Source of the DNA: Candidatus Methanomethylicaceae archaeon GD_Cm_T35_P0_bin.15
GTDB taxonomy: Archaea > Thermoproteota > Methanomethylicia > Methanomethylicales > Methanomethylicaceae
Assembly (NCBI GenBank): GCA_038801785.1
Contig: JAULTD010000002.1
Coordinates: 7,993 to 71,992 of the forward strand
Length of the DNA: 64,000 bases
Direction of reading: 5' to 3'
Under the pieces are notes generated by a model, which worked only from the letters and a program-made list of their open reading frames with translations, had not been told where the DNA came from and searched no databases. The position numbers were made by a program, and so were the translations under genes. Below are positions 24,660 to 35,457 of the stretch, in pieces. Numbering within the stretch: position 1 is the first letter of the stretch; each line of letters opens with the position of its first letter.

Positions 24660-25025
24660 ATGGCTGACCGCCCGCGGCTGGTGCTTTTGATGGTGGCCAT
24701 TCAGGCAGCCTTTGTAGCAATCAACCTGAGCATGCCGTTCCTCACCGGAAGCTTCCTTTCGTATACATACCTCGATTTCCTGATGGCCTACCTGACCGCC
24801 ATAATCGAGCTGATCCTTGTCGTGGGGTTCCTGAGAGGCTCCAAGTGGGCGTGGTTCGCCGGCCTCTTCTACAGCGGCCTCTCAGTGCTGATGTACGCCG
24901 TCTCATACCTCTCCGTCCCCTCGGTGTTCTACATAATCCTGATATTCATGCGTATTGTGGTGATGGCCTCGCTGAGGAGCAGGAACGTCCGAGCCTACTT
25001 TGACATCACCCGGTTCACTCGATGA
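24660..25025 (+). CDS. hypothetical integral membrane protein
   Basis: 121 aa with four hydrophobic segments. Confidence 0.5.
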   Translation: MADRPRLVLLMVAIQAAFVAINLSMPFLTGSFLSYTYLDFLMAYLTAIIELILVVGFLRGSKWAWFAGLFYSGLSVLMYAVSYLSVPSVFYIILIFMRIVVMASLRSRNVRAYFDITRFTR

Positions 25026-25698
25026 GCGGGAATACCTCCTCCCTTATATATGAGAGGAACTCCGCCTCCTGGATCTCGCTGAACGCGGTCACCACCGAGC
25101 TCCTCGTGACGCCTGCTACTATGCCATACCTCTTGGATTTGAAGACTATGTACCAGATGACGCCGTGGCTCAGGTAGTCGTTGTAGAGCGCGGTGTTGGC
25201 CAAGCCCGTACCGTATAGCGAGAGCTTGTCGACATTAGGTATATCGACACCGTCGAAGAAGATCACCTTCGTATCGTCGGGGTTTGCCTCATGGAACGTC
25301 TTCAGCGTCTCCGGGAGGATCTTGGCCTCGACGATACCGCCTGTGGTGATAAAGAGTATCCTGCTCAGCTCATTGGCTATGTTGTTGGCAACCCTCTTCT
25401 TCTCCAGCACAATCAGGAGCGTCCTATCGCCGTTCTTGACGAAGAGGAAAGGCGCCTCAAGGGTCCTGACGACCAGCCTCTCCCCCTCCCTGTGGGCGAC
25501 CGTGAACGGGATGTCCTGCGAGAAGACGCCCTGCAGCGAGTCCGGGGTCAGGGCGAGCCTGTCTATCTCTGTGATGAGGTTGAACTTGTGCTCGTTCTGG
25601 GCATATTCCTCTTCCTTCCTGTACTCTTTCAGTTTTGCCGATATAGTCGGGAGGTCGATCTCCTCCCTGACTTTAAAGACCTTGCCAGCCAAAACCAT
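25015..25698 (-). CDS. hypothetical protein, co-transcribed downstream of topoisomerase IB
   Basis: 227 aa from ATG 25698 (the track opens at TTG 25743). No family recognised. Contains GDRTLLIVLEKK (D-x7-E-x-K), weakly reminiscent of PD-(D/E)xK cores. Confidence 0.55.
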   Translation of the reverse strand: MVLAGKVFKVREEIDLPTISAKLKEYRKEEEYAQNEHKFNLITEIDRLALTPDSLQGVFSQDIPFTVAHREGERLVVRTLEAPFLFVKNGDRTLLIVLEKKRVANNIANELSRILFITTGGIVEAKILPETLKTFHEANPDDTKVIFFDGVDIPNVDKLSLYGTGLANTALYNDYLSHGVIWYIVFKSKRYGIVAGVTRSSVVTAFSEIQEAEFLSYIREEVFPLIE

Positions 25699-25808
25699 CC
25701 TGAACGCCCCACCCCTCTGTTGAGGGCGCTTTAATATAAGCAATGTCCCGCAAGCCCCATTGCACGGATAAGCGCATGGAATAGGACGGGGAGGTAAAAG
25801 GGCCAGGC

Positions 25809-27326
25809 TCAGCTCTCCTTGTCGATCCAGCCGAACCTCCTCTGCAGAGACTTGTTGTAGTAAAGCTTCCAGTCGTAATCGATCCTCCTCCCCCAGTTCG
25901 CGTAGACCCTGGGATCGATATAATTCTTCAGCGAGGTGTTGAGATTATAGTCCCGGGTAGCGGTTATGGCCTTTATCCTCAGTTCGAGCTCCCTGATCCT
26001 ATCCCTCTTGGCGTTCTTCTCCTTCAGGGCCCTGAGCCTCTCCCTCTTCTTCTCGAGCGACTCTTCCCAGTTCTTCGGCATCTTCCTCTTGTGGTTGCAG
26101 ACTATGGCTGCCTGCAGGTTTGCCATTGTGGCATAATACCTCTTGACGTAGGCGGGGTCCTCCGGCTTGACCTTCGCCTTCTCAAGCTCGCCCTTGGCGG
26201 TTATCGAGGCATGATAGGTCCTGAAGACCTTTGCCGAGAGCCCCGGCATCACCTCTGCGAGGTAGGCGTTGACCCTCTGGGACCTGATACCGTTGAAGAG
26301 GGTGCCGTTGCCCTCCTTCACGTACTCCATAAGGTTGTCCACTACCGGCTCCTGTGGCATAATCGTGCAGTTCCACCTGACGCAGTCCTTTCCCAAGAAA
26401 TCGAAATTGACCGATCCGTCCGGTCTGAACTTGATGTGCTCTGCCCTCAGGGTTGTTGCACCGACGGTATCTGCCTCATCGTCCCCCTTCTCATCGCCCA
26501 CCCTCATCTTGAGGTGATCGATCAGATAGCAGACCGTCGCGACCTTCCTCAGTGTGGGGTCCCTTGACCTGAGCCCGTCAAGGATGTGCTTCCTCACCTC
26601 CCTGATCTTCTTCTCCAGCTCCCACGCCTTGTCAAACTTCTCCACATCCCTTACCTGCTTTATGTACGCTGTATCGGAGAGCCAGACATACTTCATCTTG
26701 CCTCTCAGCTTGTCCTTCCACCTCGCGACCCAGAGCGAGGAGGGGTCAAAGAGGACTGCCCCCCACCTACCGCCGTTCGGCGGTTCGGGCACCTTGGCGT
26801 CGGGGGAGAGGTTCAGCGTGATATCTTCTGCCTTGAGGCCGGGTTTCCACACCCCCCTCATGGGGTGCTCCCCCCTGCCCATGAATATCGAGGCCGGTTC
26901 AACCATATAGTTGCTGATCTCCATCGGCATGCCATTGACATAGGCGAAGCCGTACTTCTGCCTGTTCTCCTCTCTGATCCTCTTCCTCTCGGCGGCGAGA
27001 GCCTTCCTCTCCTCCCTGCTCATCCCCTCCCTCTTCGCCCTCTCCGACTCTAGCCACTTCACGATCTGCGAAAAATCGAAATCGTCGGGGCCGACCGCCT
27101 CACTTATCCCCAGCGCCTTGCCGAAGTCGGCGAAGAAGTTCCTCACGAAGACCTTGTCCTTGACGTAATCGGTGCTGAGCTTCCTTGCCCAGGCGACAGC
27201 CATCTCCTCCTGATCCGGGGTCAGCGCCAGCTCCCTTCCCCTGAAGGTGATCCTGAAGCCCAGCGGCTTGTAGACCGGTATCAGCACGCCGTTAGTGATC
27301 AGCTGCCTGACCTCGATCTTTTCCAT
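25809..27326 (-). CDS. eukaryote-type DNA topoisomerase IB
   Basis: 505 aa. IFMGRGEHPMRG, DTVGATTLR, FDFLGKD, KVFRTYHASIT, AIVCNHKR and the C-terminal catalytic-Tyr context LNTSLKNYIDPRVY align motif by motif with eukaryotic Topo I. Confidence 0.92.
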   Translation of the reverse strand: MEKIEVRQLITNGVLIPVYKPLGFRITFRGRELALTPDQEEMAVAWARKLSTDYVKDKVFVRNFFADFGKALGISEAVGPDDFDFSQIVKWLESERAKREGMSREERKALAAERKRIREENRQKYGFAYVNGMPMEISNYMVEPASIFMGRGEHPMRGVWKPGLKAEDITLNLSPDAKVPEPPNGGRWGAVLFDPSSLWVARWKDKLRGKMKYVWLSDTAYIKQVRDVEKFDKAWELEKKIREVRKHILDGLRSRDPTLRKVATVCYLIDHLKMRVGDEKGDDEADTVGATTLRAEHIKFRPDGSVNFDFLGKDCVRWNCTIMPQEPVVDNLMEYVKEGNGTLFNGIRSQRVNAYLAEVMPGLSAKVFRTYHASITAKGELEKAKVKPEDPAYVKRYYATMANLQAAIVCNHKRKMPKNWEESLEKKRERLRALKEKNAKRDRIRELELRIKAITATRDYNLNTSLKNYIDPRVYANWGRRIDYDWKLYYNKSLQRRFGWIDKES

Positions 27327-27431
27327 GGCGATCGCCCTGATAGCTGTTAACGAGTAATGATATTATAGATAAACTTTTTTGAGTTATGGGTGCCGCTCCA
27401 TGAGGGCCTCCAGCTCTGAGCTGGGGCGAAG

Positions 27432-27439
27432 TTTATAAG
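27432..27439 (+). promoter_or_regulatory. TATA-box-like element upstream of the SMC-like operon
   Basis: tttataag lies 40 nt upstream of ATG 27479. The same octamer precedes the AbrB-like ORF (31486) and a near copy precedes the MCP (56512). Confidence 0.4.
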
Positions 27440-27478
27440 GCAGGGTTCCACTCTGGAAAGTTCCAAGGGGCACCATGA

Positions 27479-29239
27479 ATGTCCAAGTTTACCATATCCG
27501 AAGTCATCCTTGAGAACTTCATGTCGTACGAGTATGCCAGGGTGCCCCTTAAACGCGGCCTGAACCTCATATCGGGCCCCAATGGCGCAGGAAAGTCCTC
27601 GATCCTCCTGGCGATATCCGTAGCGACCGGCCAGAGCTACACCGAGCGCTCGAGGAAGCTAGCCGACCTCATCCGCCGGGGTAAGGAGACCGCCCGCGTG
27701 ACCCTCGTCTTGGACAACAGTCCCGACGGAGGGAAGAGGCCTGTTCCCTTCATCAACAGCGACTCGGTGGCCGTCTCCAGGTACCTGAAGAAGGACGGGA
27801 CCTACTGGTTCGAGATCAACAACAGGGAAGCGGGCAAGTTCGACATCAACCGCCTCTTCAAGAGCGTAGGAATGAACCCCGACAACATGCTCGTGATAAT
27901 GCAGCAGAACATGATCGAGGAGTTCGCCATCACCTCGCCCGAGAAGAAGCTGAGGATGGTGGAGGAGGCCGTCGGCTTCTCGCAGTACCGGAAGGCGATC
28001 TACGATGCGGAGGAGAAGCTGAACCGCATACTCGGCGAGGAGGAGGCGACATCCCAGCTCCTCGTCAGCGCCGAGCAGACCCTCGCTTACTGGAAGGATC
28101 TATTCGACAGGTACAACGAGAAGAAGTCCCTCTCGGAGAAGAAGGCATACCTGGAGAGGGAAGCCGCCTGGGCCCAGATCCTGAAGAGCGAGCGGGCGCT
28201 GACAACGATCGAGGAGAGGCTGCGCCTCAAGGCGTCCCAGCTCGAGGACCTCAGGAAGAGGATAGCCGAGGCAGAAAAGTCTGCGGGGGGCCTCTGGGAG
28301 GATTACCTTGCGGAGAAGGAGTTCCTCCGGTCCCTCCTCTCGGACCGCGGCGGCGAGGACCAGATGAGGAAGCTCGGGGTGCTCGACGAGAAGATCGACG
28401 CGACGATCAAGGGCTATGTCGATGCGCGGGTCGAGGCCGCGGTGATGCGCTACCGCACAGAGGGGCTGGAGTCCGACATCAAAGAGTTGCGGTCATCGCT
28501 CAACGAAGCCAAGCAGAATTTGGAGGAGTCCAACAAGCTCAGGGAGAAGGCGGGCGACCGGATCGAGACCAGCAGATCCGCCCCCGAGATCACCGAGGAG
28601 CTGAAGTACGTCAACGCACACCTGCTCTCCCTCGGCGACGTCCCGGATGACGCGCCGTCCATGTATGAGGCCTACCTCAAGACCTACAACGAGCTAAAGG
28701 AGAAGGTGACCGTCGTCGGCGAGAACAGGAAGAGGACGATAGAGGAGCTCGATGAACGGAAGAAGGTCTGGAAGGGCATAATGGAGCGCCTCGTAGAGGA
28801 GATCAACCCGATCTACCGCGACGTCCTGGGGAGGGTCGGAGGCGTCGGATCGATCCGCCTCTCGGGGATGGAGGATCCGGATCGTGCGGGGATAGAGGTC
28901 ACTGTGGGGTTCAGGGGGGTCTCCCCCGTAGTGCTCGATGCCTATGCCCAGAGCGGCGGGGAGAGGGCGGTCTCGACGATGGCGTTCCTACTCTCGCTCC
29001 AGCACCAGCTCAAGTCGCCGGTTAGGGCGGTCGACGAGTTCGACGTGCATATGGATCCATCGAACAGGGAGGCGATGATGAGGATGCTCTTCTCGTTCAT
29101 GAGCGAGAACGCAGACGTCCAGTTCATAATGATCACGCCGAGTCAGCTAAGCGCTGTGGGTAAGTTCGCCAACATCGTCTTCGTCCAGAACGTGCGCGGG
29201 AGATCGGAGGTGGCAAAGGCTGCCATCGCCACGCCCTGA
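27479..29239 (+). CDS. short hinge-less SMC-like ATPase with SMC5/SMC6-like head motifs
   Basis: 586 aa. Walker A GPNGAGKS (33-40), Q-loop VIMQQN, signature QSGGERAVST (490-499), Walker B/D-loop VRAVDEFDVHMD, and QFIMITPSQL. Residues ~165-445 are heptad-rich and charged with a central SDRGGED break. No hinge domain and no CxxC hook. Confidence 0.85.
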   Translation: MSKFTISEVILENFMSYEYARVPLKRGLNLISGPNGAGKSSILLAISVATGQSYTERSRKLADLIRRGKETARVTLVLDNSPDGGKRPVPFINSDSVAVSRYLKKDGTYWFEINNREAGKFDINRLFKSVGMNPDNMLVIMQQNMIEEFAITSPEKKLRMVEEAVGFSQYRKAIYDAEEKLNRILGEEEATSQLLVSAEQTLAYWKDLFDRYNEKKSLSEKKAYLEREAAWAQILKSERALTTIEERLRLKASQLEDLRKRIAEAEKSAGGLWEDYLAEKEFLRSLLSDRGGEDQMRKLGVLDEKIDATIKGYVDARVEAAVMRYRTEGLESDIKELRSSLNEAKQNLEESNKLREKAGDRIETSRSAPEITEELKYVNAHLLSLGDVPDDAPSMYEAYLKTYNELKEKVTVVGENRKRTIEELDERKKVWKGIMERLVEEINPIYRDVLGRVGGVGSIRLSGMEDPDRAGIEVTVGFRGVSPVVLDAYAQSGGERAVSTMAFLLSLQHQLKSPVRAVDEFDVHMDPSNREAMMRMLFSFMSENADVQFIMITPSQLSAVGKFANIVFVQNVRGRSEVAKAAIATP

Positions 29240-29418
29240 AATCACCTTAACCTTTTTATCATTACATCTGCTTCAATATGATTGTTGCAGTTGTCACAGG
29301 GGGATTATCACGACTGCGGGTACACCGTCGGAATGGCATCCTGAAGCCTCCCGGCTCCAGCCTCCTACACGATCGGTCCCCGTCACGCAGCCCCGTCTCA
29401 GGCCGGAGGTGATGCGTA

Positions 29419-30348
29419 TTGCCGCCGCACCAGCATGAACACAACAAGGCCTTTTACGAGGAGCTGGCGAGGATAGTCAACCTCTGCCAGAGCATCAGGA
29501 CTAAGAGCGACGATCCGTTCCTGGTGGACGTCCCCCAGAAACTTGCGATCCTGAAGAAGCTCCTGCCGAAGTGGAAAGCTCTCGATGAGCTCCTCATGGA
29601 TGCCGAGGCGCTGAACGAGCTCTCGCTCATGGTCAAGCTCCAAAGCGACTGGGTCAGGCGGCGCGCAACCGGCCTCTTCATAGATCCGTTTCTGATAGAG
29701 GTCAAGGTCAAGATGCTGAGCAAGGAGCACCTGGCGTCGGCGCTCCTATCCTCCTGGAGGCCTCTGATCGCCTCAGATCAGCTGACACCGCGGCGCCTTG
29801 CGCAGGCGATCGAATACTGGAAGGTCCTCCTCCCCCTCTCGCAGAGGATGGCGGAGGCCGAGCCCGTCCAGGAGACTGAGCAGAAAGTGATGACCGTATC
29901 CGACCTCATCCGCCTAAAGTTCCTCTCCGACAAGGTCTTCAACGAAGAGGTAAGAGGTATCGAGGCCGAGCTGGTCCGCAGCGCCGGAGGGGCCCCTGTC
30001 GACTACTGGAGCTTCGTGATCCGGGATACCTACGACGAGACCGTTATGAGGGCGTATGCCCTCAGTTTCCTCATCTCCAACGGGCACGCCGACCTCATCA
30101 TAAACCCGGTCGAGGAGACCATAGATATAGCCCCTGTCACAGGACCTGCGCTCAAGAAGGCGGGCAAGTCCGTACCGATCTCTATCCCCTACGAGAAATG
30201 GATGGAGATGCGCGGCCGCGGCAAGATCAGCCCGGCCGGAGGGCCTGAGCCGGCTCCGGGAACTGGGGCAGGCGGAGGCTGTCCTCCCGGGGCCGGGTCC
30301 GGTAGGGGCGGGATGGACTCGGAGGAAGGCGAGGGGACGATTACTTAA
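29419..30348 (+). CDS. kleisin-like (ScpA/Nse4-like) protein, tentative
   Basis: 309 aa. TTG start 7 nt after ggaggtga. The N-terminal helical segment DAEALNELSLMVKLQSDWVRRR resembles the ScpA 'LvmaAtLlxiKSrxL' region. The C-terminal ETVMRAYALSFLISNGHADLIINPVEETIDI resembles the ScpA winged helix (vvtFLAlLEL...v.l.Q...f.eI.i). Gly/Pro-rich tail. Confidence 0.5.
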   Translation: MPPHQHEHNKAFYEELARIVNLCQSIRTKSDDPFLVDVPQKLAILKKLLPKWKALDELLMDAEALNELSLMVKLQSDWVRRRATGLFIDPFLIEVKVKMLSKEHLASALLSSWRPLIASDQLTPRRLAQAIEYWKVLLPLSQRMAEAEPVQETEQKVMTVSDLIRLKFLSDKVFNEEVRGIEAELVRSAGGAPVDYWSFVIRDTYDETVMRAYALSFLISNGHADLIINPVEETIDIAPVTGPALKKAGKSVPISIPYEKWMEMRGRGKISPAGGPEPAPGTGAGGGCPPGAGSGRGGMDSEEGEGTIT

Positions 30349-30363
30349 GCGAGGGTGTGACAG

Positions 30364-30975
30364 ATGAGCGAAGATGCATCCCTATCAAGGAAGATAAAGA
30401 AGGCAACCCAGCTCCTGATGTACCAGCACCACAGGGTCCCGGGCGCCAAGGGCTGGGAACTGAGGAGGGTGGTCGGGAAAGACTATATGAGGGTGATAAA
30501 GCTGCTCGAGAGGCGGCTCGAGGACCTTGGCCTCGAGGTGAAGATCGTCTACAAGGACGGAATTGACCTTCCGAACCCTACCGCGGAAGACTTTGAGCAG
30601 GCTACGTTCTACGTCCTGTCCAAATCCCCCCTCCAGATGGGCGAGATCTCGCTCTCCGGGTGGAGGATAGATACCCTGGCTGTCTTGGCGGCGTCGCTGG
30701 CCTATATAATGTCCAAGCAGGGGAAGGCGCCGAGGCGGGACGTCGAGGAACTCCTCATGGAGAAGTTCCCTGACTGGAAGGTCGACTACGACCTGAACCG
30801 CTTCATCAAGCGAGGCTATCTCGACGAGGACGACTCGGGCAACCTCTTTGTAGGATGGAGGACACGGGCAGAGATCGACCGGAAGAAGCTCCTCGAGATA
30901 GTCGCTGGGTCGGTCACAGAGCCCGCCCCAGAGGCTGAGACCGGGCCTGATACAGGCATTGAGACCACGACCTGA
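30364..30975 (+). CDS. tandem winged-helix 'kite'-like protein (ScpB / MAGE-Nse3-like), tentative
   Basis: 203 aa. First WH: KATQLLMYQHHRVPGAKGWELRRVVGKDYMRVIKLLERRLEDLGLEV. Second WH: DTLAVLAASLAYIMSKQGKAPRRDVEELL...RFIKRGYLDEDDSGNLFVGWRTRAEIDRKKLLE. The order and spacing parallel my recollection of the MAGE homology domain. Confidence 0.5.
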   Translation: MSEDASLSRKIKKATQLLMYQHHRVPGAKGWELRRVVGKDYMRVIKLLERRLEDLGLEVKIVYKDGIDLPNPTAEDFEQATFYVLSKSPLQMGEISLSGWRIDTLAVLAASLAYIMSKQGKAPRRDVEELLMEKFPDWKVDYDLNRFIKRGYLDEDDSGNLFVGWRTRAEIDRKKLLEIVAGSVTEPAPEAETGPDTGIETTT

Positions 30976-32239: not shown

Positions 32240-35113
32240 TCAGGTGCCCGGGGGAGCCCTCCTCATCCTGCTCTTCAGGGCGCTCCTCTCCTCTTTCAGG
32301 ATGAGGTCCACTAGGTAGTCCAGGTCCCTGATCTCCGAGGTGATCAGAGTGATCGCCACCGGTCTGGGCAACCCCCTCGCGGCCAGGACGAGCGCGGCCA
32401 TCCCGCCATACCTCCCCACCAGCTCCCCGCTCTCGACTGCCGACTTGTACATCCTCCTGAACTTCTCCGCGACCTTGCCTGTCGCCGCCTTCTCGGCTGC
32501 CATCTGCTCCACTTCCGCCGGGTCATCTGTCAGGAGACCGATCCTCTCCGAGCCGCAGACCGGGCACCTCACCTCTCCCATGAATTTCTTGACCCTCGTG
32601 TTCTCAACGTACCCGAAGCAGTTTGTGCAGACCGCCACGCGCGACTCGTTGAGCAGCCTGGCTTTACCCGATTCGATGAGGAGGCGGCGCATCCTGTCCG
32701 CCGGCACCAGGTCCGTCTTCCAGCTCAGCTCCCTCATGCCTATCATGGAGATGGGTGAGAGCGGCTTGTCGGGATCGGTGACCACCACCCTGTACTTCCC
32801 CTCGCCCATATCCTTGACCACCCTTGCCGTGCCCTCCAAGTCCAGATCCTTGAAGAACACCTCCTTCATCCCCTCCCTGTAAATGACCGATCCCTTGAGC
32901 CCCTCTGCCAGCTGGTTGAGCCCGACGTCCTCAAAGTCTGCCTTCTTCTCCACTACCCCTGCCCTCTTCGCCACGTGGAGGAGCCTCCTCTTGAAGAGTC
33001 CTGTCCTCTCCACCGCGGCTTCGACCATACGCCCCACCTCGCCGGCATCCATCCCCTTCAGTATCTCCGCTATGACGTGGGGGCTTACTTCCGTCTTCAG
33101 GAAGATCCTGTACGCGTCCTGCGATGCGCCGACACCGCTCCCGGTCCTCTGGGCGAGCATGTAGCCGAGGAGCCTGGAGAGGGTCTTGTTTATCTGGAGC
33201 CCGAAGGCGCAGCTGATGATGACGTACCCCTCCCACTCCTCGACCGTCACCGTCCTGTCTGTAGGTACGGGGAATCCCCCCTCCACCTGCTCCCTGACCT
33301 CCCTCAGCGATCTCGCAAGGATCTCCGGTGAGACCCTGTACTCCTTCCGGATCTCCTCCGCCGCCTCTTCGACGGTCTTCCCCCCTGCCAGTATCTCAGC
33401 GCCCATGCCCCTTATGGCGCCGACCTCCTGCGCGATCTCGAAGGGCACCGGTATCTCGTCCCCGACCCAGTCGGGTATGGCCCCAGTAGGGTCGCTCTCC
33501 GCCCTGACATAGACCGAGTCCTTGAAGATGTGGATTATCTTCCAGGGCGATCCCCTGACTATGAACTTCACTCCCGGCTCCCCGTACTCCGCCACGAACG
33601 CCTCGTCGAGGGTGCCTATCGGCTCGTCCTTCTCCTCGTCCACGACGATGAAATGCTTCTCCTCGGGGATCATCGAGAGGTTCTCAAAGTAGTACTGGTA
33701 GAGGCCCTCCGAGGGGCGCGGCCTGAGCACTAGGTCGTTCTCCGGTATGTAGAGGGCAAGCCTCGGCCGCCTGGTGGACATGTACTCCAAGACCTCCACG
33801 ACCTCCTCCTCCTTCAGGTCCGCGAAGGGGTATGTCCTGCGCGAGATCTCCATGATATCGTCCACCGTCCACCTCTCCTCGTCGAGCAGGAGCCCGGCGA
33901 TCTGGTGGATCAGCACGTCCGTCGGCCTCTCCACTATCTCCACCTCCTCGAGCTCCTCCTTCAGCCCCCTCTTTACTATAACCACCGACTCGAGTGCGTC
34001 GTCAGAGTCTATCGTTATCACCTTCCCCTTCGAGGTCCCCCCCACCCAGTGCCCTGCCCTGCCGATCCTCTGCAGGAGCCGCGTGACCTGCCTGGGCGAG
34101 TTGTACTGGACGACTAGGTCGATGCTCCCTATGTCTATCCCGAGCTCCAGCGACGATGTGGAGACAACTCCCCTCAGCTCGCCCTTCTTCAGATCCGTCT
34201 CCACTCCCACCCTAGAGGATTTTGCGAGGCTGCCGTGGTGGATACCTACCGGTATGTCGATGTCCCACACCCTGAACCTGCTGGCGAGGACCTCCGCCTC
34301 CGACCTAGTGTTGGTGAAGATCAGCGTCGATCTGTGGCCGTCTATCAGCTCCCTTATCCTCCTGAGCCTCGCGGCCACCTCAGGGTAGGTGGCTATCCTC
34401 TCCGCGAGCATGGTGTCCTTCTGGCCCGCCTCGGGGAGCTCCACGTCTATGTCCATGCTCTTCGCCACAGAGACCCTGACGATCTCGCACTCCCTGTGAA
34501 CCCCGACTAGGAACTTTGCGACCTCACCCGGGGAGCCTATCGTCGCGGAGAGTCCGATGATCTGCGGCTCCGACTCCGTGATCCTCCTCAGCCTCTCGAG
34601 CGCGAAGGCGAGCTGGCTCCCCCTCTTGTCGTTCGTCAGCTCGTGAACCTCGTCGACCACGACCCACCTCACCTTGGCAAGGTGTCTCTTCATCGTCCTG
34701 CCAGGCAGGATCGCCTGGAGGGTCTCCGGCGTGGTTATCAGTATGTCCGGCGGGGCGAGCGCCTGTCTCCCCCTCTCCTTGACCTCTGTATCCCCGTGCC
34801 TGACCGAGACCTTCAGGTCGAGCTTGTTGCACCACCAAGTCAACCGCTCGAGCAGGTCCCTGTTGAGGGCCCTCAGGGGCGAGATGTAGAGCACCTTTAT
34901 GCCGCCCCTGCCACCCTCCCTCACCAACCTGTCCAGTATCGGGAGAAATGCTGCCTCGGTCTTCCCCGTCCCCGTCGGCGCGATGACCAGGACATTCTTT
35001 CCTCCGAGTATAAGCGGTATGGCGTCCCTCTGTATCTCTGTAAAGACCTTGAACCCTTTCTCCGCTACTATCCGCTGGACCGGTTTGGAGAGCTGCGATA
35101 ATATTCCGCTCAT
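32240..35113 (-). CDS. Lhr-type large superfamily-2 (DEVH) helicase
   Basis: About 957 aa. FTEIQRDAIPLILGGKNVLVIAPTGTGKTEAA, VVVDEVHEL, SAT, HHGSL and QRIGRAGH. The C-terminal region carries a zinc ribbon (CTNC...CPVCG). Confidence 0.9.
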   Translation of the reverse strand: MSGILSQLSKPVQRIVAEKGFKVFTEIQRDAIPLILGGKNVLVIAPTGTGKTEAAFLPILDRLVREGGRGGIKVLYISPLRALNRDLLERLTWWCNKLDLKVSVRHGDTEVKERGRQALAPPDILITTPETLQAILPGRTMKRHLAKVRWVVVDEVHELTNDKRGSQLAFALERLRRITESEPQIIGLSATIGSPGEVAKFLVGVHRECEIVRVSVAKSMDIDVELPEAGQKDTMLAERIATYPEVAARLRRIRELIDGHRSTLIFTNTRSEAEVLASRFRVWDIDIPVGIHHGSLAKSSRVGVETDLKKGELRGVVSTSSLELGIDIGSIDLVVQYNSPRQVTRLLQRIGRAGHWVGGTSKGKVITIDSDDALESVVIVKRGLKEELEEVEIVERPTDVLIHQIAGLLLDEERWTVDDIMEISRRTYPFADLKEEEVVEVLEYMSTRRPRLALYIPENDLVLRPRPSEGLYQYYFENLSMIPEEKHFIVVDEEKDEPIGTLDEAFVAEYGEPGVKFIVRGSPWKIIHIFKDSVYVRAESDPTGAIPDWVGDEIPVPFEIAQEVGAIRGMGAEILAGGKTVEEAAEEIRKEYRVSPEILARSLREVREQVEGGFPVPTDRTVTVEEWEGYVIISCAFGLQINKTLSRLLGYMLAQRTGSGVGASQDAYRIFLKTEVSPHVIAEILKGMDAGEVGRMVEAAVERTGLFKRRLLHVAKRAGVVEKKADFEDVGLNQLAEGLKGSVIYREGMKEVFFKDLDLEGTARVVKDMGEGKYRVVVTDPDKPLSPISMIGMRELSWKTDLVPADRMRRLLIESGKARLLNESRVAVCTNCFGYVENTRVKKFMGEVRCPVCGSERIGLLTDDPAEVEQMAAEKAATGKVAEKFRRMYKSAVESGELVGRYGGMAALVLAARGLPRPVAITLITSEIRDLDYLVDLILKEERSALKSRMRRAPPGT

Positions 35114-35457
35114 AAATGTAATGACGAGTACTTGTCCCCCCATAAATATCCTTTTCCCGTACCATCATAATCGGAAAGATCGACGGGGGACAGCGAGGGA
35201 AGCCAGTCCATATGCTGGCATTCTCGTGTAACGGCCGCTGATCTCGGGTTACGCCGCCCAGACCACCAAAGGGCACGCTGACCCCTTGCGCCCTCGGCTT
35301 CCCCCGGACCATGAATAGGCTCCCCTGCCGGCAGATCGTCGAATACACAAGGTATATCTGTGACTGATCACAGAAAGAAGACTGGGTCAGGTGCCCGGGC
35401 CGCCCAGCGGCTGATGATGAAAGCTGATTGCGGCCGTAGCATCAGGAGGCAAGCTGA

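Follow-up and report, generated by a model that had tools for sequence, protein, structure and literature searches.

An undescribed archaeal protein family with a predicted RdgC-like fold that accompanies SMC5/6-like operons

Archaeal operons related to eukaryotic SMC5/6 encode an SMC ATPase, an Nse4-like kleisin and an Nse1/3-like kite subunit, and are known from archaea of the TACK and Asgard groups (van Hooff et al., bioRxiv 10.1101/2024.01.07.573240; Yoshinaga and Inagaki, PMC8665677), with the Verstraetearchaeota named among the carriers (bioRxiv 10.1101/2024.01.07.573240, PMC8665677). One such operon lies in a 64,000-nucleotide (nt) stretch of the Candidatus Methanomethylicaceae archaeon GD_Cm_T35_P0_bin.15 (GCA_038801785.1, contig JAULTD010000002.1, positions 7,993 to 71,992), here called the window, where it is divergent from the gene for a protein of 227 amino acids (aa), termed p227, with a gene for a eukaryote-type DNA topoisomerase IB (Topo IB) standing between the two. 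p227 represents an undescribed family of compact proteins of about 227 aa that is distributed across archaeal phyla; it co-occurs almost perfectly with the SMC5/6-like operon in two phyla, usually as a divergent neighbour across a spacer of about 90 nt, and its modelled monomer fold is RdgC-like. Archaeal SMC5/6-like complexes have only recently been recognised as likely ancestors of eukaryotic SMC5/6, and we know of no account of how they work.

The operon of the window (27479-30975) is of the same kind as the published SMC5/6-related ones, but the published complexes have three subunits, to which p227 is an addition. Neither van Hooff et al. (bioRxiv 10.1101/2024.01.07.573240) nor PMC8665677 mentions a further conserved neighbour, RdgC or a topoisomerase, and p227 itself is not mentioned in the literature searched. 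The Wadjet JetABCD and MukBEF-Topo IV systems share with the window an SMC-family ATPase, a kleisin and a kite protein encoded beside a further DNA-acting protein. Unlike the situation in Wadjet, however, this further protein has no Toprim/JetD or PADLOC match and its predicted fold is not that of Toprim; the SMC head in the window is closest to Smc5/6 and not to JetC or MukB, and a topoisomerase link comparable to that of MukBEF with Topo IV is not conserved.

Three other described systems bear on the locus. RdgC, a recombination-associated nucleoid protein found in Proteobacteria and phages (PDB 2OWL and 2OWY; PF04381), is a ring dimer that binds double-stranded DNA (dsDNA) through a hole of about 30 Å and modulates or restrains RecA (PMC1885664). 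The Lhr-MPE repair operons of bacteria and archaea bring together an Lhr-Core helicase and a calcineurin-like Mn-phosphoesterase, MPE (Ejaz and Shuman; PMC7826289, PMC7437997, PMC8301817), and the archaeal helicase, itself linked to MPE, is directed at fork structures (PMC7437997). Lastly, a long form of Topo IB has been described in the Thaumarchaeota (PMC4824112). The central part of the locus comprises the following features, given with the evidence for each (ORF, open reading frame):

25015-25698, minus strand: p227, 227 aa, archaeal family without annotation, predicted RdgC-like fold (ORF list, homologues, AlphaFold2 and Foldseek)
25699-25808, minus strand: spacer between Topo IB and p227, 110 nt, with a TATA-like box and a GGTG-type ribosome-binding stretch (sequence)
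25809-27326, minus strand: eukaryote-type DNA topoisomerase IB, 505 aa (Pfam, alignment to PDB 6z01)
27327-27478, no strand: divergent spacer, 152 nt, with AT-rich TATA-like boxes in both directions (sequence)
27479-29239, plus strand: SMC5/6-like ATPase with a short coiled coil, 586 aa (Pfam SMC_N, PDB sequence matches)
29419-30348, plus strand: Nse4-like kleisin, ORF of 309 aa (AlphaFold2 model, Foldseek)
30364-30975, plus strand: kite-type subunit, 203 aa, Nse1/3-like according to the literature (conserved position after the kleisin)

The two minus-strand reading frames, the 110-nt gap that separates them and the 152-nt divergent spacer all lie where the initial annotation, made from the letters of the window, had placed them.

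Co-occurrence of p227 with the SMC5/6-like operon

The three genes at 27479-30975 form an archaeal SMC5/6-related operon of SMC, Nse4-like kleisin and presumed kite. The 586-aa ATPase matches Pfam SMC_N (E-value, E, 3.1e-32), and among PDB sequences it is closest to yeast Smc5 (2.7e-28) and Smc6 (5e-25), with prokaryotic Smc ranking behind them. The AlphaFold2 model of the kleisin, of moderate quality with a predicted local distance difference test score (pLDDT) of 71.7, displays long N-terminal helices and a C-terminal winged helix, with a disordered stretch between them; its top Foldseek match is the kleisin of the yeast Smc5/6 holocomplex (7qcd_F; E 5.9e-5), followed by the C-terminal winged helix of ScpA bound to an Smc head, with a template modelling score (TM) of 0.79 when normalised to the target (TMt). 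Homologues of the kleisin measure 252-286 aa as compared with 309 aa for the ORF of the window, the true start of which probably lies downstream of the listed TTG. The window kleisin also has a C-terminal low-complexity tail, rich in Gly and Pro, which its relatives lack. The 203-aa protein has no Pfam or PDB sequence match; its gene is located directly 3' of the kleisin gene in 33 of 41 relatives, and its identity as an Nse1/3-like kite is taken from the preprint (bioRxiv 10.1101/2024.01.07.573240).

Among 301 sampled genomes of Thermoproteota, each at least 85% complete, 140 encode both p227 and the SMC5/6-like ATPase and 143 encode neither, leaving 6 with p227 only and 12 with the SMC gene only; 26 of the 30 families listed are concordant for the two genes. 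The partners are directly adjacent in 34 of 136 Thermoproteota genomes and within 5 kb of one another in 25 more, and in the rest they are unlinked or on other contigs. Where p227 and the SMC5/6-like genes occur together although unlinked, a functional relationship is a better explanation than synteny by itself. The pattern is tighter still in the phylum of locus L064, which was sampled with 52 genomes of at least 80% completeness and in which p227 is present in 43 and the SMC-like gene in 44: both occur in 43 genomes, neither in 8 and p227 by itself in none, and the one discordant genome has its SMC gene at a contig edge. The two are direct divergent neighbours in 36 of these 43 genomes, at a median distance of 88 nt.

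Of 185,579 species genomes searched by pattern, 377 contain a p227 relative, and the 80 best loci were analysed. Their titles name the Methanomethylicota, Bathyarchaeia, Nitrososphaerales, Hydrothermarchaeota, Hadarchaeales, Culexmicrobium, Thermoplasmata, Methanosarcinales and Methanophagales, among others. Where at least 2.6 kb of upstream sequence was available (59 informative loci), the SMC-like/kleisin/kite operon is found upstream of and divergent from p227 in 51; the gap is shorter than 300 nt in 25 of these 51, and a Topo IB gene intervenes in 15, all from lineages whose names begin with Methanomethylic-. The earlier suggestion of a connection between the 227-aa gene and the SMC-like operon is thereby supported beyond the window, both by co-occurrence and by divergent pairing.

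Sequence family and predicted fold of p227

The ATG start of p227 at 25698 is backed by an N-terminus, MVxAGKxF, that is common to 35 homologues of constant length. A longer, TTG-initiated form of 242 aa (to 25743) was considered and is not supported by the N-termini of the homologues. The 708 homologues are nearly all 223-237 aa long and none bears a Pfam domain, and in 1.84 billion representative proteins the family accounts for only 161 clusters, almost all of 215-240 aa. Those relatives that carry names, and the loci that were fetched, belong to metagenome-assembled genomes of Methanomethylicaceae/Verstraetearchaeota. Identity across phyla amounts to 52-79%, above that of the SMC subunits. 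No Pfam, NCBIfam or PADLOC family matches p227 (PADLOC searched to E 0.1), and a p227 profile returned only noise from the PDB (E above 0.5).

Conservation was judged from one alignment of 35 close homologues and another of 56 diverse homologues reaching down to 19% identity. In the diverse alignment, only G163 and G179 are near-invariant, and the best-kept polar positions, K6, K101, K144 and K158, are basic. A D-x7-E-x-K string, GDRTLLIVLEKK (residues 90-101), had led the initial annotation to see a faint resemblance to PD-(D/E)xK nucleases. The first of its acidic residues, D91, is Asp in 20 of the 35 close and 5 of the 56 diverse homologues and the second, E99, is Glu in 30 and 10 of them, respectively, which leaves K101 as the sole conserved residue of the string; the acidic residues of a further motif, FFDxVDIPN, are not kept in homologues either. 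None of the 35 members matches a PDDEXK family of Pfam. With variable Asp and Glu residues and no such fold among the Foldseek matches, the PD-(D/E)xK assignment is rejected, and this lack of conserved acidic residues argues against a nuclease of any kind and in favour of a binding or scaffolding protein.

A structural model of the 227-aa protein, which had been recommended as a check on the nuclease idea, proved confident and RdgC-like, with no restriction-endonuclease-like (alpha-beta-beta-beta-alpha-beta) core among its Foldseek matches. Built with AlphaFold2 from the 35 homologues (pLDDT 86.5; predicted TM, pTM, 0.82), it consists of two alpha/beta halves with long curved strands. The RdgC proteins of E. 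coli and P. aeruginosa are the only Foldseek matches in the PDB with a TM above 0.5 (0.54-0.60 when normalised to the query, TMq), that to 2owl_A having an E of 1.2e-4, a probability of 1.0 and a TMq of 0.60 and that to 2owy_A an E of 2.4e-4. Matches in the viral library BFVD extend to E 7e-7 with TMq values of 0.55-0.63, the strongest bearing names other than RdgC, and six phage proteins annotated as RdgC or recombination-associated match the model with TMq values of 0.52-0.59. The whole p227 chain is aligned in the comparison with RdgC, with TM values of 0.55-0.63 normalised to p227.

At the level of sequence, none of the 35 p227 members matches PF04381 at E up to 10, and hhalign gave a probability of 0.05% for p227 against E. 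coli RdgC and of 0.15% against an RdgC profile, the latter built on a shallow alignment of nine sequences because the best 120 RdgC homologues listed were all relatives of above 85% identity. Since no similarity was detectable in either sequences or profiles, p227 is termed RdgC-like in fold and is not regarded as a member of PF04381. The two proteins have in common that they are small, non-catalytic (in the case of p227, presumably so), built of alpha/beta repeats and placed in a context of recombination or fork repair. RdgC measures about 300 aa compared with the 227 aa of p227, however, and part of the J-shaped RdgC monomer must therefore be missing in p227. Unlike RdgC, moreover, p227 is archaeal and linked to SMC5/6-like, Lhr and MPE genes, and any dimeric ring or DNA binding of p227 is putative. 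Taken as modelled, the RdgC-type fold, previously proteobacterial and phage-borne with one haloarchaeal note, would be extended to a widespread archaeal family.

Two further observations concern relatives of either protein. In E. coli K-12, the gene for an SMC-like ATPase of the Rad50 family, sbcC, is separated from rdgC by only some 2.6 kb (L017, 409108-415753); this proximity echoes the pairing of RdgC-like and SMC-like genes in the window and is perhaps a coincidence. The only Asgard-labelled relative of p227, a Thorarchaeota protein of 25% identity that has no close relatives (L104, 1953-2666), is encoded in a tight string of short, overlapping, co-directional genes together with DUF5131 and with no SMC gene nearby. 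The string resembles a virus or provirus and is reminiscent of phage-borne RdgC.

Gene context and possible role of p227

Two genes flank this part of the window:

32240-35143, minus strand: Lhr-type superfamily 2 (SF2) helicase, 967 aa (Pfam DEAD, Helicase_C, WH_Lhr and DEAD_assoc)
24660-25025, plus strand: membrane protein, 121 aa, convergent on p227 (ORF list)

The Lhr gene of the window converges on the end of the SMC5/6-like operon, from which two small genes separate it. An Lhr gene occurs in the neighbourhood in 35 of the 80 loci, from several phyla, and as a rule it converges on the operon from the kite side. In 17 of 69 loci, the gene directly 3' of p227 encodes a calcineurin-like, MPE-type phosphoesterase; 26 of 80 loci have one within 3 kb. 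In some genomes the three are combined into Lhr-p227-MPE operons, with p227 in the centre and 5-40 nt between genes; the Nitrososphaerales have the order SMC operon, Lhr, p227, MPE. In the genome of the window, the MPE homologue is found elsewhere, unlinked. The association of Lhr-Core helicase and phosphoesterase that the published operons display thus recurs in the Nitrososphaerales and other loci, but the published units are of two genes, whereas p227 is wedged between the two in the archaeal loci found here. The intervening gene goes unmentioned in the published Lhr-MPE papers, and the published survey of archaeal Lhr neighbourhoods used TIGR profiles, to which an unannotated family is invisible.

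Two lineages show variations on this theme. The Lhr paralogue directly upstream of p227 in the Nitrososphaerales is a protein of 1376 aa (L078, 3759-7886, plus strand; also L084, L087, L090, L095 and L097) that bears an intein with a LAGLIDADG homing-endonuclease domain in its helicase core. In a genus with complete genomes of 1.6-1.8 Mb and no SMC5/6-like gene, a distant p227 homologue (26-29% identity) is encoded beside NucS in five of five genomes, with a Cas4-like PD-(D/E)xK nuclease between the two in three of the five (L098, 6224-8322; L099-L102).

Fold and gene context together lead us to favour, with some reservation, p227 as a non-catalytic DNA-binding accessory factor of replication-coupled repair by the SMC5/6-like complex and Lhr/MPE. 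By analogy with RdgC, p227 would be a non-enzymatic dsDNA-binding protein, probably a dimer that encircles or clamps DNA by way of K6, K101, K144 and K158, conserved basic residues that are compatible with such binding. At stalled forks or recombination intermediates it would recruit, position or restrain the SMC5/6-like complex and, likewise, the Lhr/MPE fork-processing enzymes.

Several points weigh against this proposal. The RdgC-like mechanism rests on a monomer model with a TM of about 0.6, there is no relationship between p227 and RdgC at the sequence level (hmmscan; hhalign below 1%), and p227 is acidic overall, with an isoelectric point of 5.4. The association with the SMC5/6-like gene is not obligate, as the 12 genomes with that gene and no p227 and the 6 with the converse attest, and roughly half of the Thermoproteota genomes have the two unlinked. 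Because members of one family are not independent data points, a Fisher p-value for the association is descriptive and overstates the case. Finally, transcription regulators, too, are classically encoded next to an operon and divergently from it.

A more ambitious version, which we regard as rather unlikely and advance tentatively, would add p227 to the archaeal SMC5/6-like complex as an integral fourth subunit or as its loader, its RdgC-fold DNA ring capturing or marking duplex DNA at stalled forks, handing it to the SMC ring and coupling the complex to Lhr and MPE. If so, RdgC-type clamps and SMC complexes would be ancient partners, and the archaeal ancestor of SMC5/6 would gain a defined module for substrate selection.

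It is rather unlikely, although conceivable, that p227 serves Lhr and MPE in the first place, whether as an adaptor for fork processing or as a regulator of RadA in the manner of RdgC and RecA, and that its link to the SMC genes reflects a shared repair regulon. The tight Lhr-p227-MPE operons, the 35 loci with Lhr close by and convergent on the SMC operon, the distant homologue beside NucS where no SMC5/6-like gene exists and the precedent of RdgC (PMC1885664) would all fit this possibility. Lhr, however, is nearly universal in archaea, whereas p227 tracks the patchy distribution of the SMC5/6-like genes; the commonest arrangement is the direct divergent pairing of p227 with the SMC gene, and MPE is unlinked in the window genome.

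Still less probable is a role for p227 as a DNA-binding transcription regulator of the divergent SMC5/6-like operon that would employ alpha/beta repeats like those of TBP. In most lineages the divergent layout, with about 90 nt between the genes, would suit a regulator, and Foldseek does detect local similarity of p227 to TBP cores, but the TM of that match is just 0.25. p227 is, furthermore, better conserved across phyla than the proteins it would regulate, is retained in many genomes in which it is unlinked from the operon, and is an internal gene of the Lhr-p227-MPE operons of other genomes; in the window itself, Topo IB separates it from the SMC promoter.

With regard to the favoured role as an accessory factor, the consistent presence of p227 with SMC5/6-like complexes across phyla and its appearance in Lhr-MPE operons provide a concrete, soluble handle for biochemistry, and p227 points to control of replication forks and recombination as the task of the SMC5/6-like complex.

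Topoisomerase IB in the interval between p227 and the SMC genes

The designation of the 505-aa protein as Topo IB is sound. Three Pfam domains are matched (Topoisom_I_N, PF02919, 1.9e-56; the Topoisom_I core, PF01028, 8.2e-68; and Topo_C_assoc, PF14370, 2.3e-14), and the protein aligns over essentially its full length (residues 5-504) with its best solved match, the archaeal enzyme of PDB 6z01, 'DNA topoisomerase I' (E 1.9e-145), with the catalytic motifs identical or conservatively replaced in that alignment. The motif S-x-x-N-Y-x-D-P-R is present as SLKNYIDPR (residues 465-473), with the nucleophilic Tyr at Y469, and the remaining active-site motifs supply R294 (TLRAEH), K313 (LGKDCV), R369 (KVFRTY) and H412 (CNHKR). 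We take R294, K313, R369, H412 and Y469 to be the equivalents of human R488, K532, R590, H632 and Y723. The window encodes a complete and probably active eukaryote-type enzyme. Like the Topo IB of Thaumarchaeota and Caldiarchaeum (PMC4824112; PDB 6z01), it is a three-domain protein of the eukaryotic type with the same catalytic residues; the host differs, being a member of the Methanomethylicaceae, and the protein itself is in no way unusual. Terms for Topo IB found no text match in the review PMC11894792.

The occurrence of this enzyme outside the Thaumarchaeota had been flagged as noteworthy. It is, however, carried by 19 of the 23 sampled genomes of the window's own family and by many other families of Thermoproteota, for a total of 119 of the 301 genomes. 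Its presence in the window is an ordinary trait of the family, which adds one more carrier lineage and nothing else new.

The Methanomethylicaceae-level family f1 is the only one of its class with Topo IB, which is found in 21 of 24 of its genomes and is syntenic there; genus g9 and all eight other families of the class lack it. In all genomes of eight f1 genera that could be checked, contigs permitting, Topo IB sits between p227 and the SMC-like operon, and the whole region is syntenic in the family, with Lhr on one side and the 121-aa membrane protein on the other. Where Topo IB is absent, p227 is directly divergent from the SMC-like gene (G008, G015, G025, G026, G029, G032, G034, G036 and G040). 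Beyond f1, no Topo IB gene was recorded within 10 kb of p227 among the matches listed, the nearest distance to either partner in the sampled genomes being 14-51 kb. A synteny survey across archaeal genomes, such as the initial annotation had called for, thus places Topo IB between the partners in this one family only. The distribution of Topo IB across the 301 genomes is also statistically independent of that of both partners; for p227, 61 genomes have both genes, 85 p227 only, 58 Topo IB only and 97 neither, for an odds ratio of 1.2. Two families typify this independence: all 45 genomes of f10 carry Topo IB but neither p227 nor the SMC-like gene, and all 18 of f23 carry the latter two but no Topo IB.

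The same interval is occupied by other genes elsewhere. Depending on the lineage, FtsZ, Lhr or metabolic genes lie between p227 and the SMC operon; in the Nitrososphaerales it is the intein-bearing Lhr helicase, and in G103 an enolase-family enzyme and a glycoside-hydrolase-like protein. The FtsZ gene is seen in family f19 (L105, 620-1726, in G281; L108, 1031-2104, in G165). As several lineages have differing inserts at this position, the Topo IB of f1 is one of several lineage-specific inserts, and it would be at most a co-regulated neighbour of p227 and the SMC operon. Its conserved synteny in eight genera tells against so modest a role, and makes a functional tie specific to this lineage possible.

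Sequence features of the two spacers bear on such co-regulation. In the window, the p227 ATG is preceded by a GGTG stretch and, at a distance of about 37 nt, by a TATA-like box, cttatattaaag (25740-25729); a similar AT-rich box lies 35-45 nt before the p227 start in the Topo IB-containing relatives L018-L040. As this box is kept in relatives, p227 probably has a promoter of its own. Read-through from Topo IB into p227 may occur as well, especially in those genera in which the gap between the two is only about 37 nt. In the divergent spacer, the positions of putative TATA-like boxes would assign that at approximately 27360-27373 to Topo IB and that at 27431-27439 to the SMC-like gene.

Eukaryotic SMC5/6 is linked to DNA supercoiling, and this link, the invariable position of Topo IB in the eight genera and the 37-nt gap of some of them would speak for a single five-gene island of Topo IB, a PD-(D/E)xK-like 227-aa nuclease and the SMC-like operon, comparable to MukB with Topo IV or JetABC with JetD; the idea is nonetheless very improbable, and as a general system largely refuted, given that Topo IB adjoins neither partner outside the family in the genomes sampled, that its odds ratio with p227 is close to unity and f10 and f23 split it from both, that the nuclease residues are not conserved in a protein that has an RdgC-like predicted fold and no PADLOC match (JetD included), and that unrelated genes take the same place in other lineages. 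What stands of the proposed island is the grouping of p227 with the SMC5/6-like trio, to which Lhr and MPE are frequent additions, and what falls is the membership of Topo IB. The region is, in our estimation, slightly more likely than not a conserved archaeal neighbourhood for chromosome maintenance and repair, into which a Topo IB gene has been inserted in one family. At its opposite border, the gene for the 121-aa membrane protein (24660-25025, plus strand) overlaps the stop codon of p227 by 11 nt, and a convergent gene of this kind is also present at 14 related loci.

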